The notes under the pieces: model-generated
What the model was told of the DNA's origin: nothing
What the model saw: only the letters and a program-made list of their open reading frames with translations
Databases searched by the model: none
Assembly: GCA_951406725.2 (NCBI GenBank)
Contig: OX597842.1
Span: forward strand, 11,780,001 to 11,844,000
From: Octopus vulgaris
Lineage: Eukaryota
Length of the DNA: 64,000 bases
Reading direction: 5' to 3'
Shown here: positions 3,137 through 61,962 of the stretch, one piece after another
Layout: each line of letters starts with the position of its first letter
How positions within the stretch are numbered: the first letter of the stretch is position 1
Made by a program: the position numbers and the translations under genes

Positions 3137-3179
3137 TACTGACGTCTGTTTCGGCAATTTCCATTGCTTCATCAGTCAA
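3137..3179 (-). ncRNA. Degenerate hammerhead-like motif
   Basis: Minus strand CTGATGA-agcaat-ggaa-attgcc-GAAA-cagacg-TC. Stem II forms, but stem I pairing is not resolved. Confidence 0.45.
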
Positions 3180-3521
3180 GCCCACTCGATTCATCAGTAA
3201 TAAATATATGTATATATATATGTGTGTGTGTGTGTGTGTGTGTGTGTGTATGTGTGTGTATGTGTGTGTGTGTGTATGTGTCTTTCTGCCTGTGTTTGTC
3301 GCCCGCCATCTCTTTATAAACGGTGTTGGTTTGTTTACGTTCTCATAACCCCAGCGGTTCGGCAAAACAAAAAGACTGTTGTGGTTTTGTCGGAGTAAAA
3401 CTCTTCAAGGCGATGCTCCATCATGGCCACAGTCCAATGACTGAAATAAATATAAGATAAAAGATGTATGAAAACACAGAACATGTTTATAATATTGGGA
3501 CACCTTGACGGCCACATTGAC

Positions 3522-4330
3522 TCTTCTTCTTTTTCTTCTTTTTCTTCTTCTTCTTCATCTTCTTTTTCTTCTTCTTCTTCTTTTTCTTCTTCTTCTTCTT
3601 CTTCTTTTTCTTCTTCTTCTTCTTCTTCTTCTTCTTCTTCTTTTTCTTCTTTTTCTTCTTCTTCTTCTTCTTCATCTTCTTCTTCTTCTTTTTCTTCTTC
3701 TCCCTTCTCTCCTTACTTTTCTTCTTCTCCCTTCTCTCCTTACTTTTCTTCTTCTTCTTCTTATTATTATTATTATTATTATTATTATTATTATTATTAT
3801 CATTATTTCTTCCTCCTCCTCCCCCTCTTTTCCTTGCACTGCCTTCGCAACTCCTTCTTCTTTCCCTTCTTCATCAACTTCTTTTTCTTCTTCTCCCTTC
3901 TCTCCTTACTTTTCTTCTTCTTCTTCTTATTATTATTATTATTATTATTATTATTATTATTATTATTATTATTACTATTATCATTATTGTTATTTCTTCC
4001 TCCTCTTTTTCTTCCACTTCCTCTTCTGCTTCTTCTTTTTCTACTTCCACTTCCTTTCCTTCTCCTTACTTCTCCTTTTCTTCTTCCTCTACTTCTTCCC
4101 TTACCTTTTTCTTCTCACTTCTCCCTCTTTCCTCTCCATCCTTCTTCTCTTTCCTCTTCCTCGTCTTCTCCGCTTAACTCACCACAACCACCACCACCAC
4201 CATCATCACTACTACTACTACTACTACCACCACTACAACTACTACTACTACCACCACTACAACTACTACTACTACTACTACTACTACAACTACTACTACT
4301 ACTACTACTACTACTACTACTACTACTACA
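3522..4330. repeat. Compound (CTT)n/(ATT)n/(ACT)n microsatellite
   Basis: Direct reading. Includes a duplicated TTTTCTTCTTCTCCCTTCTCTCCTTAC block. Confidence 0.95.
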
Positions 4331-6148
4331 ACGCTTCCGTTTACTTCACTTCCGCCTTTATCTCCTTCCGCCTTTTTTCGCGTCATCTCCGCGCTCTTCC
4401 CTCCTTCCTCTCCCTGCCACTCTGCACTCCCACCTTTTGTCATCTCCTCCTCCTACGCCCCCTCCCCTTCACATCTATTATCCTCTCTTTTTCATCCTCT
4501 TCATCCGCGCTCTTCTTTTTCTTCTTCTTTCATTATCGAAAGTGGTTCTGTTTGTTGGCGATTTCGTTGGGTGTTTTTTTTTTCCTCTTTTGATATTTTA
4601 CCGTGTCTAACTTCTCATTTCATCACCGTCATATTTTAGTTATAGATATACACGTGTATATATACATACATATATATGCACACATATATATATACATATA
4701 CATACATATATATATATATATATATATATATATATATATATATATATATATATATATATTCATCTATATGTATACATATATATATATATATATATGTATA
4801 TATATATATATATATATGTATGTATATATTCATATACATATATGTGTGGGTGTTCATATGTAAATGTATGTATAATTATATACGCGTATTCATATATATA
4901 TATATATGCAAATATATATATATATATATATATATATATATATATATACATGCATGCACACATAAATGTGCGCTTATACATGTATATGAGTATATTTATA
5001 TATTTATATATATATATATATATATATGTATGTATATATAAATATATATATACACGTGTACATATTCATATATTAGAGAGAGAGAGAGAAAAGGGGACAA
5101 ATATATATATATGTGTGTGTTTATATATACACATAAATGCATATACACATGCGCACATACACATGTATAAATTGATGCGTTTATGAGCTTCCATATTTCT
5201 CTCTCACTTTCCACACACACACACACACACACACATACACATATACAAACACACATACAAACACACCACTATTCTTGGAGTCTGGTTTTTACCAGCGATT
5301 TACCATTCCACAAGATGACAGCTGATAATGAGGCAAGATCGATTTACCGAAGTCAGACATCTGTGGAGAATTCTAAGAACCTTCTTTTGGTACCAACTGA
5401 TTAGATTAGGGGCGGGTGGGGGCGTGGGAGTGTATATACGTGTGCGTGTAGGTGTGCGTGTGTATGTATATGTGTATGTGTGTGTCTTTGTGCATCTGTG
5501 TGCGTGTGTCCAAATACATATATATGTATGTATGTATGTTTGTATAGGAATGTGTGCATATGTATGTGTATGTATGTGTTTAACTGTATGTATGTGTGTG
5601 TCCATATTTATATGCATATATATGTGTGTGTGTGTTTGCGTGTATGTGGGTGCGTGCGTGTGTATGCGTGTGTATTTCTCTGTGTGTGCGTATGTGTGTA
5701 AATTTCTATATAGGTTGTGTAATAATATACGTGTATGAATATATATCTGCTTATATATGTATATGTATGTGTAAATATATGTAAGAATTTATGTATGTAT
5801 ATATACAAATATATGTATATATATATATATATATATATATATATATATATATATATATATATATATATATGATATATAAGCATATATATACATATGTATA
5901 TGTGTATATCTATATCTATGTATATATATGTGTGTGTATATATTTCTACATGTATCTATATATATATATGCATTTGCGTATACATATGTATATGTGTGTG
6001 TATGTATGTGTATATGTCTGTACACAGATACATATATATGTATACAAAGATACATATATATATAGATATATATATATATACATATATATAGATATATATG
6101 TGTGTGTGTAGAGAGAGAGAGAGAGAGAGAGAGAGAGAGATTTACATG

Positions 6149-58656: not shown

Positions 58657-59056
58657 TCTTTTACTTGTTTCAGTCATTTTGACTGCGGCCATGCTGGACC
58701 ACCGCCTTTAGTCGAGCAAATCGACCCCGGGACTTATTCTTTGTAAGCCCAGTACTTATTCTATCGGTCTATTTTGCCGAACCGCTAAGTAACGGGGACA
58801 TAAACACACCAGCATCGGTTGTCAAGCAATGCTAGGGGGATAAACACAGACACACAAACATACACATACACATATATATATATACATATATACGACAAGC
58901 TTCTTTCGGTTTCCGCCTACCAAATCAACTCACAAGGCATTGGTCGGCCCGGGGCTATAGCAGAAGACACTTGCCCAAGGTGCCACGCAGTGGGACTGAA
59001 CCCGGAACCATGTGGTTGGTTAGCACGCTACTTACCACACAGCCACTCCTGCGCCT
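58657..59056 (-). mobile_element. SINE family A, full length
   Basis: Reverse complement of the family consensus. Confidence 0.92.
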
Positions 59057-61619
59057 ATGTGCCATTATTATTATTATTATCCTCGTCGCCATGATTATCA
59101 TCGCCATCATCACCACCACCATCACCACCACCACCATCATCATCATCATTTACAGTGGCAAGATGGCCGAGACGTTAGCATGCCAGGCGAAGTGTTAAGC
59201 GTCATTTTGTCTGGCTTTACGTTATGAGTTCAAACTCCGCCGTCTTACCCCCTTCCAAGAATATGCTGACCTTGTGCCAAAATTCCTAATTATTATTATT
59301 ATCATTATTATTATTATTATTATTATTATTATTATTTTGTCCCATAATGCAATATTAAAGCGTTAATGTAATGTCACTTGGTACATTGCGTTTGGGACAG
59401 TCTAAATATATACACACACACACACAGCTGCGAGTGTGTGTGTGTGTGTGTAGACAGGGAGAGGGGGTTTGTGTTTATACCTACACTCATGAGAGTCTGT
59501 GCGCCTGTGCAAATGTATGTGAATTTGTGCGCAGAAGTATACGGGGCTATGTATGTGTGTTTGCGTGAAAGAATATATTCACATACCTATATATAAATAC
59601 ACACACACACACACGTGCATATATATTTATGTTGGTATATATTCCCAAACATATATATGTAAATATACAATATCTATATATACATATATATATATATATA
59701 TATGTATTTATGTATACATATTATATATATATATTTATATATATGTATATATATATATTTGTGTGTATATATGTATATATATATTTGTGTTTATATATGT
59801 ATATGTATATGTATATATATATATATATGTATATATTTGTATGTATATATGTATATATAAGTATATATATGTATATATTTGTGTGCATATATGTATGTAT
59901 ATATATATATATATATATGTGTGTATATATATATATATTTATGTGTGTGGGTATCTTTGTGTGTGTGTACATATATATATATATATATATATATATATAT
60001 ATATATATATATTTATACAATATATATAGAAAGAGAGTGATGTATGTATGTATGTATGTACGTATATATATATATATATTACACACTCACGCAGTGCAAT
60101 CTGTGTGTGTCTGAGACCAATGTAGATGTCGTCTGGTATGAATGTTAAATCCAATTAAAACACAGTGCCATCATCATCACCATCACGCCACATAAAACAA
60201 GAACAACATGAACAACAGTGGCTGTAGCACCGTCATCATCACCAGCACCTTAAGCATCATCATCATCATCACCATTACTGTCATCATCATCATCATCATC
60301 ATCATCATCATCACCACCATCGTAACATGACAACCATTATAATCATCATCATCAACATCACCGTCGTCCTCATCATCAACATCATCCTCATCATCATCAT
60401 TATCATCATCAACAACATCATTATTATCGTCGTCGTCATCATCATCATCATCATCACAGTCATCATCATCATCATCATCATCATCATCATCATCATTATC
60501 ACCATCGTCATAAACATCATCATCATCATCATCACTATCACCACCACCATCGCCGCCACCATCGCCGCCATCGTCGTCGCCATCATCATCATGCTACATA
60601 AAGCAAGAACATTAACAATAATGGCATCAACCTCAGCACCAGCAACAACAACAACAACATCAATAAGCGGAACGTTAAAAAGCAGTCAAAATGGCGACGG
60701 CTACGCGGAGGACGGCGGCCATTTTAACTTCACCGAAAATGATGTCACGTGATGTTTACGAAGAAGAAATATTCCAAATCTACTTTATTTATTGCCCTGC
60801 GGCGAAAATTGAACAGAATCGAACCGTCCTGGTGGTTTTGGTTTTGTTGTTGTTGTTGTTGTTGTTGGTGGTGGTGGTGGTGGTGGTGGCTATGGGAGTG
60901 GTGAGGGCGCTGGTGTTGTTATTAGTGGTGGTGGCAATGGTGGTGGAGGTGTTGTCGTCGTTGTTGTTGTTGTTGTTGTTGTTGTTGTTGGTGGTGGTGG
61001 TGGCTGTGGTGGTAGTGGTGATGGTGATTGTGGTTGTGGTGTGTGGTTGTGGTGGTTGTGGCTGTGGTGGTAGTGGTGATGGTGATAACGGTGGTGGTGA
61101 CGGTTTTGTTGTTGTTGTGGTGGTGGTGGTGGTGGTGGTGGTGGTGGTGGTGGTGGTGGTAGTAATGGTGATGATGATGTTGTGGTGGTGTAGGTGATGG
61201 TGATGGTGATGGTTATAGTGTTGTTATTTTTGTTGTGCTGGTGGTTTTGTTGTTGTTGTGGTGGTGGTGATGGTGATGTTGTTGTTGCTGTTGAGGTAAT
61301 GATAGTGGTGATGGTGATAGTGTTGCTATTGTTGTTGTTGTTGTGGTCGTGGTAATAGTGGTAATGGTGGTGCTGGTGGTGGTGGTGGCTATTGAGGGGG
61401 CGTGACGTTTTTGTTTTGTGTCTGTTGCCGTTGTCTTTACTGTTGTTGCTTAGCTCCCCCCCCCATGTGGCCTAAAATAACCCCACCCCCACCTCCACCT
61501 TAATTTTTATTTCTATCCGAAAAGGGGGTTAGCTTTAACGGAATATTACTATTATTTAACGGATTATTATTATTATTAATATTATTTTTATTATTATAAT
61601 TTTTATTTTGTTTATTAAT

Positions 61620-61962
61620 ATTATTATTATTATTATTATTGTTGTTGTTGTTGTTGTTGTTGTTGTTGTTGTTGTTGTTATTGTTGTTCAGATCACTGCA
61701 AGATTCCGAGTTCGATTCCAAGCAGTGACCTGAACAATAATAATAATAATAACAACAACAACAACAACAACATTGAAAAATACCTTAGGAATGAGAACAC
61801 AGGTTCGAAATTTCCCCAAGACACCTGATGAAGGCTGTAGGGTATATCAGCCGAAATGTTGTGTTAACAACAAACAAGATGAGGACAAATATTGGTCAAA
61901 TGTAAATAATGTAAATAATGTAAATAATGTAAATAATTCCTCATCTCTTAAATATAGAACTG
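61620..61962 (+). mobile_element. SINE-like element with box B, hammerhead and 5' inversion
   Basis: GAGTTCGATTCC at 61708-61719. 61620-61698 is the inverse of 61722-61770. Hammerhead at 61821-61864 and tandem AATGTAAAT near the 3' end. Confidence 0.65.
61821..61864 (+). ncRNA. Minimal type I hammerhead motif
   Basis: acac-CTGATGA-a-ggctg-tagggtatat-cagcc-GAAA-tg-TT-gtgt. Confidence 0.75.

Follow-up and report, generated by a model that had tools for sequence, protein, structure and literature searches.

To our knowledge, a hammerhead ribozyme is near-universal in those clades of Penelope-like elements (PLEs) that encode a C-terminal nuclease, and the minimal hammerheads (min-HHRs) of metazoan PLEs are also the subject of Lunse et al. 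(2017). PLE hammerheads, their dimer-type stem III, and the targeting of TA repeats have already been described, including in an Octopus family of the Hydra clade (PMC4209133, PMC8557442, PMC11167929). PMC4209133 already describes most motifs as single, dispersed occurrences, "probably related to truncated PLEs", along with pairs on opposite strands.

Here, we analyzed a 64-kb stretch of Octopus vulgaris DNA (the window), in which a preliminary description had listed 12 complete or near-complete CUGANGA/GAAA/NUH motifs and five half-motifs. We conclude, with a probability of about 0.88, that the motifs are part of the terminal repeats (pLTRs) of five or more coding PLE families and of three likely non-coding monomer families, the copies in the window being mostly short 3' ends. 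Judged by sequence, the hammerhead-shaped motifs are genuine and mostly read as leftover ends of ordinary Penelope-type elements. That hammerheads are numerous at PLE ends within TA repeats has been published before, and no new category is needed. Two features appear to go beyond the published picture: a fixed CUGUNGA core in family C and a tRNA-like head within the 3' UTR of family G.

Each of the 12 coordinates fell within 1–5 nt of the stem I edge of a hammerhead-shaped motif of type I, and the quoted complementary stem I pairs were correct. The consensus CUGANGA/GAAA/NUH, in order and with closing stem I ends, was present in eight of the 12, whereas the remaining four (20902, 37601, 50254, and 51688) read CUGUNGA (U6). 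Several copies were imperfect. A canonical core combined with a full stem I, a G10.1–C11.1 pair, and an exact stem III palindrome occurred only at 14027, 42572, and 36129; stem I was incompletely paired at 3137 and 37601, the palindrome was broken in the window copies at 11865, 50666, and 61821, and the A.A at the stem II base of 14779 was a family-wide trait. The 12 motifs sorted into eight repeat families (A–H), in line with the diversity of PLE-type hammerheads originally proposed. The five half-motifs are also genuine but are not separate entities, being arms of family B and D elements that are either inverted or truncated at the 5' end. Three additional hammerhead-shaped motifs had not been listed before. 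The coordinates are collected in Table 1.

Table 1. Hammerhead-shaped motifs and the elements that carry them in the window
Feature	Position	Strand	Remarks
Family H motif, decayed	3132..3180	-	imperfect palindrome and 3/5 stem I pairs; in element ~2951-3191, from an old family of likely non-coding monomers
Family F motif	11865..11945	-	251-bp 3' end 11812-12062; 97% to 3' end of Hydra-like PLE L317; flanked by TA arrays
Family B-like copy	12449..12662	-	ends just upstream of GAAA (half-motif 12645); TA arrays both sides
Family A canonical motif	14027..14116	+	H17 at 14110; 221-bp 3' end 13928-14148; 98% to 3' end of Hydra-type PLE L022; between TA arrays
Family B fold-back	14504..14936	+	inverted arm 14504-14742; sense arm motif 14779-14824 (A.A at stem II base); 94-95% to 3' end of Hydra-type PLE L312
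Family C minimal motif	20902..20937	+	CUGUUGA (U6); element ~20839-21029
Family J extra motif	21656..21712	+	5/5 stem I pairs, near-palindromic stem III
Family C motif with A6	36129..36164	-	CUGACGA; element ~36049-36214; likely post-insertion mutation (A6 in 1.1% of exact family copies)
Family C motif	37601..37636	+	CUGUUGA; 3/4 stem I pairs; element ~37554-37745
Extra hammerhead-shaped motif	42058..42100	+	exact palindrome ACGGCCGT, poor stem II; no relative among fetched loci
Family D insertion	42279..43452	-	~1.5 head-to-tail 583-bp monomers; canonical motif 42572-42662 (H17 at 42578); TA arrays at both ends
Family D inverted arm, same insertion	43186-43452		explains half-motifs 43155 and 43245
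Family D fold-back	47770..48139	.	two truncated arms (half-motifs 47893, 47968)
Family K extra motif, decayed	48219..48280	-	
Family C motif	50253..50290	-	CUGUGGA; element ~50169-50356
Family E motif	50666..50727	-	palindrome broken; element ~50379-50749; putative non-coding monomer related to D
Family C motif	51688..51723	-	CUGUAGA; element ~51597-51767
Family G copy	61699..61962	+	3' half of tRNA-like head, (AAT)n/(AAC)n, minimal motif 61820-61865 (decayed palindrome, ATGT), fixed 3' end; a short piece on the 5' side is inverted; no TA array

The covariance or descriptor search suggested in the preliminary description gave a divided result. A strict descriptor returned eight window matches, a density ~5x that of a genome sample (10 in 396 kb), whereas Rfam returned none at the gathering score; among the 150 of 386 weaker Rfam matches listed there was no hammerhead family, and most were microsatellite noise. 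Rfam likewise gave no hammerhead match in one family G locus. The tiny palindromic stem III of the dimer type was confirmed, being exact in seven of the eight strict window matches and in 259 of 323 descriptor matches (overlapping loci kept), for which the descriptor demands one pair only. In families A, B, and D, the computed energy of stem III was -6.4 to -10 kcal/mol as a duplex versus +1.4 kcal/mol as a hairpin, and in families C and G a hairpin is impossible. Stem I differed between families and stayed complementary, as claimed: two pairs were changed on both sides between family A and its sister family, and all four standard pairs were found at positions 1–3 across 20 recurring types, positions at which the descriptor itself demands pairing.

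PLE clades were assigned by sequence motifs, which place families A, B, and F as 3' ends of Hydra-type PLEs. The frame upstream of the family A match in L022 holds YRDD and GIY-YIG, and a sister of family A (L320) is complete, with a 984-aa open frame between two hammerheads in a 4,650-bp unit; this frame contains RWK, DKT, the CxCX5C linker, CxxC, and CxH, and CCHH is absent. Family B is 94–95% identical to L312, collinear with L313 over 4.4 kb, and shows the CxCX5C linker, CxxC, and CxH. The linker was absent in all three family F copies (L316, L317, and L318), whose frame is otherwise ~30% identical to the Hydra-type frame. Pfam found nothing in L320 and off-target weak matches only in L312 and L317. 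Among the copies examined, those of A itself, B, F, and G were broken or truncated, and none had a full-length open frame.

Family C reads as a PLE of the Neptune/Nematis type, the two not told apart. Locus L356 has a 930-aa frame between two CUGUUGA repeats (RVT_1, E = 7e-8; GIY-YIG, E = 0.006) and carries DKG, a CX4CXXC linker, and a CCHH-type GIY-YIG nuclease in C-terminal position, in agreement with the DKG, CX2-5CxxC, and CCHH that mark these clades; two pLTRs were present in L356, as in L320. In nine of the 10 family C loci with a long frame, a motif lay downstream, always as CUGUUGA. Family C is the most abundant hammerhead family examined and lacks the canonical core: we counted 15,730 exact copies with U6 versus 180 with A6, and 106 with a control change at U4. 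Position 7 varied by subfamily (U in 11/13, C in 10/16, and A in 5/10), whereas the rest of the core, stem II, and the palindrome were fixed, with the window copies only 68–90% identical to their longer relatives. Such a combination suggests that selection on the fold has continued. Cleavage by the U6 core is probably slow or absent, yet the motif seems still to be under selection; the changed catalytic letter, which likely weakens self-cutting, offers a natural test of whether the elements need cleavage.

Family G is best read as the 3' end of a Penelope/Poseidon-type PLE. In L423, L179, L188, L418, and L430, a PLE 3' UTR or coding end is followed by a tRNA-like head and then by the motif, and a CCHH nuclease without the cysteine linker was seen in L423, one broken, truncated copy. 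The A and B boxes of the head were judged against the usual box consensus. Many copies start at the head, so that part of the family may be SINE-like, resembling a SINE born inside a PLE.

Families D and E look like non-coding head-to-tail monomers, and H is likely to be one. In family D a 583-bp spacing recurs, including one three-unit array; the longest stop-free frame is 69 aa, GC is 36%, and the predicted circular fold has z = -4.9. In families E and H, the sequence of the 3' tail reappears upstream of the motif, without a fixed unit length. Neither D nor E nor H yielded a coding partner, and in a search covering contigs, none of the sequencing runs that contain D was catalogued as RNA. 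An apparent Hydra-type coding remnant lies after one H copy (L228), so a coding form of H may exist.

The reported preference for TA repeats stood for seven families, in which TA lay within 25 nt of the 3' end in 50–96% of copies (A, 21/26; B, 39/42; C, 22/30; D, 25/30; E, 24/25; F, 16/27; H, 12/24) against a background frequency of 0.06–0.10, the copies counted being mostly best matches to those in the window rather than a random draw. It failed for G (1/33), whose copy at 61821 was likewise not (TA)n-embedded as described. The TA arrays could also have grown after insertion. Two fixed 3' end points were found in A, B, D, E, and F, inverted arms in A, B, D, E, and G, and variable 5' ends in A, B, C, F, and G. 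As the PLE literature suggests (PMC4209133, PMC8557442, PMC11167929), the element's protein would nick (TA)n, and reverse transcription would start inside the RNA at one of two sites 110–370 nt downstream of the hammerhead; early termination or folding back of this synthesis would likely leave short 3' ends. Two hammerheads in one tandem transcript would pair through the palindromic stem III, making cleavage dependent on a dimer and perhaps on the protein. As the listed copies and half-motifs read through an intact cleavage site, the templates would have been uncut or re-ligated RNA. For families D, E, and H, the protein would be borrowed from a Hydra-type element.

We weighed this reading against other explanations. 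In AT-rich, repeat-rich sequence the motifs could in principle be chance matches, and the bare CTGANGA core is indeed frequent (27 in the window versus ~18.5 expected from shuffles), with several window copies imperfect. However, the eight strict matches compare with a mean of 0.01 (maximum 1) in 300 block-wise dinucleotide shuffles of the window. Exact copies of the family patterns number in the thousands versus zero for reversed patterns, and stem changes between sister families are two-sided, leaving chance with practically no probability. It is also very improbable that all families are independent non-autonomous retrozymes spreading via small circular RNAs. That explanation holds in outline for D, with its recurring units, short frames, and stable circular fold, and apparently for E and H, and no PLE coding remnant lies inside the window. 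Yet the longer copies of A, B, C, F, and G, found elsewhere, enter PLE coding sequence and have variable 5' ends, which identifies the window copies as 5'-truncated ends and refutes the explanation for nine of the 12 motifs. The non-autonomous, non-coding population originally proposed therefore survives in outline for D and apparently for E and H, whereas in the other five families these ends are shared by longer copies with reverse transcriptase and GIY-YIG coding sequence.

Within the PLE reading, two families allow competing accounts. For family C, there is slightly less than an even chance that the U6 hammerhead is a dead relic and that the family owes its spread to cleavage being dispensable or harmful. 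In one natural A6C hammerhead, the cleavage rate is <0.1 per min (PMC3088659), the hammerhead is dispensable for PLE insertion in vitro, mutants in an Anolis PLE leaving insertion unaffected (PMC11167929), Naiad PLEs thrive without canonical hammerheads (PMC8557442), and the exact U6 copies far outnumber the 419 of one A6 sister-family pattern; a dead motif is, however, hard to square with subfamilies that differ at position 7, the sole free core position, and with the constancy of the rest of the core, stem II, and the palindrome. For family G, the short copies may be plain 5'-truncations with a passive tRNA-like stretch and no working Pol III promoter, an account we consider rather doubtful. 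It accommodates the 5' ends of 91 copies, of which 44 stop before the head, 19 inside it, and nine run into the UTR or coding sequence, as well as the 2,846 candidates that carry the coding end and UTR, the lack of an Rfam tRNA match in one head, and ARAGORN calls in four of 11 heads at a relaxed threshold only, L423 not among them. Against it, 15 of the 47 head-reaching copies begin at -1 to +2 of the head's first base, where an even spread over 80 nt would give ~2, and a TTTT run is missing in eight of 10 full-head copies, though family D likewise lacks one near its motif. We hold as a shade more doubtful still the joint proposal that the fixed A6U core of family C retains cleavage activity, either at a slow rate or only in the presence of the element's protein, and is maintained by selection across successive subfamilies, while the 3' UTR promoter of family G works and sheds a hammerhead SINE.

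Both questions matter beyond this locus. The genome provides a natural comparison, a very abundant U6 lineage beside an A6 sister family with an otherwise almost identical motif. A dead U6 core would mean that the elements can do without cleavage in vivo and that the fold is maintained on other grounds. A working one would be a family-wide natural core variant missed by every CUGANGA search, the natural consensus would be wider, and genome counts would be too low. A working promoter would make family G a living model for the origin of Sm-alpha-type elements, showing a SINE arising inside its own parent.

Compared with known systems, L320 shares RWK, DKT, the linker, CxxC/CxH, and the lack of CCHH with the Hydra clade, including Hydra-1_Obim of Octopus bimaculoides, and family B its linker and C-terminal motifs; type I hammerheads near the 3' end, (TA)n targets, inverted 5' arms, and a tail are also shared (PMC8557442). 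The unpaired base on each side of the stem II foot (A.A in B, E, and J) has parallels in File S2 of that paper, whereas the Hydra-1_Obim hammerhead given there matches, by eye, none of the window's motifs. Unlike these elements, which are "generally <3 kb" with a 30–40 bp tail, the L320 unit is longer, and we find Asn-rich inserts, long 3' UTRs, a loop II of up to ~50 nt, and two 3' end points 70–180 nt apart; family F lacks the linker yet still ends in TA. Family C resembles Neptune/Nematis PLEs in its protein motifs, two pLTRs, and TA targets and differs in its fixed non-canonical core. With the min-HHR (PMC4209133), C and G share the extra base after CUGANGA, G10.1–C11.1, the ACGU palindrome, and a 4–5 bp stem I, although the consensus CUGANGAH and the alignment rows consulted in that source have A6 where family C has U6.

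Family D shares head-to-tail non-coding monomers with one type I hammerhead per unit, low GC, and a stable predicted circle with animal non-LTR retrozymes (PMC7229834; bioRxiv 10.64898/2026.07.22.740005), and E and H apparently share the monomer arrangement. The tested retrozyme examples are ~200–400 nt, shorter than the D unit, and D arrays are short (1–3 units), TA-targeted, and accompanied by PLE-type inversions. Finally, family G has in common with the Schistosoma Sm-alpha/Sj-alpha hammerhead SINEs a short repeat in which a putative Pol III (tRNA-like) promoter precedes a type I hammerhead (PMC6765202). Unlike those SINEs, its hammerhead is of the minimal dimer type, most of its copies occur singly or as inversions instead of in tandem, and a coding Penelope/Poseidon-type element harbors its head in the 3' UTR, so that parent and SINE-like offspring would coexist.

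The hammerheads in the window are real and of a known kind, namely those of the terminal repeats of Penelope-like elements (PLEs) together with retrozyme-like monomers. Each of the 12 positions at which the preliminary description had placed a motif proved to be the stem I edge of a type I hammerhead-shaped structure. The canonical form was found in full at 14027, 42572 and 36129 only; the others deviate, with U in place of A at core position 6 (CUGUNGA) in four of the 12 and an A.A at the stem II foot of the 14779 motif, or are partly decayed (3137, 11865, 37601, 50666 and 61821). 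None of the window's motifs was recognised as a hammerhead in Rfam scans, and a scan of one family G locus was likewise without a match.

We assessed motif frequency with a descriptor that requires the core CUG[A/U]NGA, GAAA, a short stem III, UH and four or more stem I pairs, and that tolerates an additional A or a single mismatch at the stem II foot. It matched eight times in the window, whereas 300 shuffles averaged 0.01 matches, so the frequency is not that of shuffled sequence; a narrower version that allowed neither the additional A behind the core nor the stem II foot mismatch gave five matches. In 40 evenly chosen 9.9-kb stretches of the genome (396 kb) there were 10 matches against 0.13 in shuffles, a density of about 25 per Mb, which extrapolates very roughly to 70,000 motifs (Poisson limits 34,000-130,000) and makes the window about five times denser than average. 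Further hammerhead types occur in flanks and sampled stretches (L004, L016, L018, L079, L108, L115, L258, L370 and L371); altogether, we distinguished 47 stem I/stem III types, 20 of them found at least twice. Two more TA-flanked repeat families conserve the heptamer CUGA(U/A)GA with no in-register GAAA, stem III or NUH, have 16 (43628) and 18 (15236) distinct relatives among the fetched loci, and may represent half-cores like those noted for Naiad PLEs.

Features located in the window and at related genomic loci (L-numbers)
Feature	Location	Strand	Remark
Unlisted hammerhead-shaped motif	window 21656-21712		relatives elsewhere
Unlisted hammerhead-shaped motif	window 42058-42100		without relatives among fetched loci
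Unlisted hammerhead-shaped motif	window 48219-48280		relatives elsewhere
Heptamer repeat family	window 43628	+	
Heptamer repeat family	window 15236	-	
Complete Hydra-type unit	L320:2088-6738		4,650 bp; long Asn-rich inserts
Family F nuclease	L316:4076-5374	-	
Family F nuclease	L317:4464-5783	+	
Family F nuclease	L318:4743-5759	+	
SINE-like repeat	window 20425-20793		adjoins TA array; many similar copies
SINE-like repeat	window 58678-59046		adjoins TA array; many similar copies
Hairpin, near-perfect, 166 nt	window 47494-47659		beside second family D insertion
LINE, ~5.9 kb, two copies head-to-tail	window 23834-34867	+	ORF1 with weak zinc knuckle; ORF2 with endonuclease, RT and zf-RVT; first ORF2 open (25551-28988, 1145 aa), second broken into two frames
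Fragment presumably resembling non-LTR C-terminal zinc finger and restriction-like nuclease region	window 57482-58333	-	
Fragment presumably of the same kind	window near 11320	-	
Tandem repeat, 139 bp	window 6760-7540		5.6 copies, 98% identity

The genome (2.8 Gb, 227 contigs) was searched with one query copy for each of the repeat families, A to H, that carry the 12 motifs. The family A copy at 14027 is a 221-bp piece with 98% identity to the 3' end of L022, whose upstream frame contains YRDD and GIY-YIG; copies of this family reach upstream for ~150 bp to >3 kb, many with an inverted arm. A sister family provided a complete element (L320), in which two hammerheads 4,650 bp apart enclose a 984-aa open frame. 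Stem covariation is seen between A and this sister, with two changes in stem I, each on both sides. The L320 protein contains RWK, DKT, a CxCX5C linker, CxxC and CxH, which are marks of the Hydra clade in the consulted portion of PMC8557442. Dozens of related copies retain open frames of 600-980 aa, indicating that the lineage is young. A predicted Octopus sinensis ankyrin-repeat protein (P0036) shares 70% identity with 21% of the Hydra-type protein and is a gene model including a PLE piece, real or artefactual. For family B (14779; half-motif at 12645), the 3' end of L312 matches at 94-95% identity; L312 is itself a disrupted Hydra-type element and aligns collinearly with L313 across 4.4 kb. 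Family F (11865) shares 97% identity with the 3' end of L317, and in three of three copies its nuclease has no CxCX5C linker.

Five window motifs belong to family C, which forms the terminal repeat of a Neptune/Nematis-type element: the two repeats at L356 flank a 930-aa frame that has DKG, CX4CXXC and CCHH (RVT_1, E=7e-8). A comparison of the family C protein with solved structures gave no match. L022 for A and L356 for C are PLE reverse transcriptase and GIY-YIG loci with shared ends, of the kind whose search had been proposed. Longer copies of A, B, C, F and G continue into PLE coding sequence, so the earlier reading of the elements as non-autonomous holds for three of the 12 motifs and fails for those whose families have coding members. 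That impression is explained by the window itself, in which we found no PLE coding remnant.

The exact family C pattern matched 15,910 times in the genome, compared with 0 for the reversed control. A6 was present in 180 of the 15,910 matches, and a decay control with a change at U4 gave 106; the A6 copies of family C, such as that at 36129, are therefore most simply later mutations. Nine of the motifs behind the 10 longest family C frames were found, and all nine read CUGUUGA. Among the first 100 listed matches, position 7 was U in 41, A in 24, C in 22 and G in 13, and the base follows subfamilies when A6 copies from 12 A6-targeted loci are excluded. Free variation at position 7 in an otherwise fixed motif points to ongoing selection on the family C hammerhead fold. 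Activity of the U6 core is disfavored by a natural A6C hammerhead, for which the consulted part of PMC3088659 gives cleavage of <0.1 per min. The alignment rows consulted in PMC4209133 have A6 in every core, but A6 was required by that search. A sister pattern that differs in its loop matched 419 times, and 99 of the first 100 matches listed carry A6. An alternative register of the family C core (U3...G8) was rejected by eye, as stems I and II fail to form.

Upstream of its motif, family G (61821) runs into the terminal part of a PLE frame lacking the cysteine linker, a putative Penelope/Poseidon-like parent seen in one broken copy. The hammerhead is preceded by an (AAT)n run, and a tRNA-like head, whose motifs resemble A and B boxes, separates this run from the 3' UTR. 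The putative tRNA identity is weak: with a relaxed threshold, ARAGORN called four of 11 heads, and Rfam recognised no tRNA in the one head scanned. A family G 30-mer has 2,705 exact genome matches. Followed from the 3' end, 44 of 91 copies stop short of the head, 19 end inside it, 16 start no more than 8 nt from its first base (15 of them at -1 to +2), three start slightly upstream and nine carry on into UTR or coding sequence; four of the nine long copies look like one duplicated insertion plus an inverted arm. This pile-up suggests that Pol III transcripts may have been used as templates. A family-wide U6 core and a tRNA-headed PLE end would both be newly described here on the literature searched: neither was found in titles and abstract openings, and Lunse et al. 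2017, Repbase and supplement file 1 of PMC4209133 could contain either.

A preference for TA repeats had also been proposed. We scored (TA)4 or longer no more than 25 nt from the 3' end, in copies that were mostly best matches and not random draws, and found it in 21/26 (A), 39/42 (B), 22/30 (C), 25/30 (D), 24/25 (E), 16/27 (F) and 12/24 (H), where the H count was 3/27 with a shorter reference and the C and F references may stop short of the tail. These seven families exceed the 0.06-0.10 at random positions; family G, at 1/33, does not share the preference. The CxCX5C linker has been proposed to direct microsatellite targeting, yet 16 of the 27 family F copies end at (TA)n without it. Microsatellites are very abundant in the window. 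Hammerhead-free SINE-like repeats adjoin TA arrays too, which means that such flanks are not confined to the ribozyme elements.

Family D, to which 42572 and four half-motifs belong, consists of 583-bp units joined head to tail; this spacing recurs, and one array contains three units. A family D 27-mer has 267 exact genome matches, the longest frame of the unit spans 69 aa, and the predicted circular fold gives z = -4.9 relative to 60 shuffles. The 3' part of family E (50666) is ~71-75% identical to D, with tail sequence repeated upstream of the motif; family H (3137) is old and laid out in much the same way, and one of its copies is followed by a stretch reading as a coding remnant. The fetched loci yielded no coding partner for D, E or H, and none of the sequencing runs containing family D is recorded as RNA. 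Hydra-type coding remnants beside two E copies (L366 and L367) were judged chance neighbours, with a TA array intervening in L366.

The stem III palindrome has a predicted duplex energy of -6.4 to -10 kcal/mol in A, B and D, and its hairpin pairing is poor. Cleavage would need two hammerheads per transcript. The element protein would nick (TA)n, and reverse transcription would start downstream of the hammerhead and mostly stop early or fold back. Because the listed copies span the cleavage site, the templates would be uncut or re-ligated RNA.

The consulted parts of earlier reports already describe scattered single hammerheads from truncated PLEs (PMC4209133), Penelope expansions in octopus (PMC8967140), and (TA)n targeting with hammerheads in Hydra elements including Hydra-1_Obim of Octopus bimaculoides (supplement of PMC8557442). 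Each of A, B, D, E and F has two fixed 3' end points, which match the PLE tail; in an Anolis PLE, this tail marks two internal reverse-transcription start sites (PMC11167929, in part). The family G pile-up resembles Schistosoma Sm-alpha as presented in the available portion of PMC6765202, and families D, E and H fit animal non-LTR retrozymes as outlined in the sections consulted of PMC7229834 and bioRxiv 10.64898/2026.07.22.740005.
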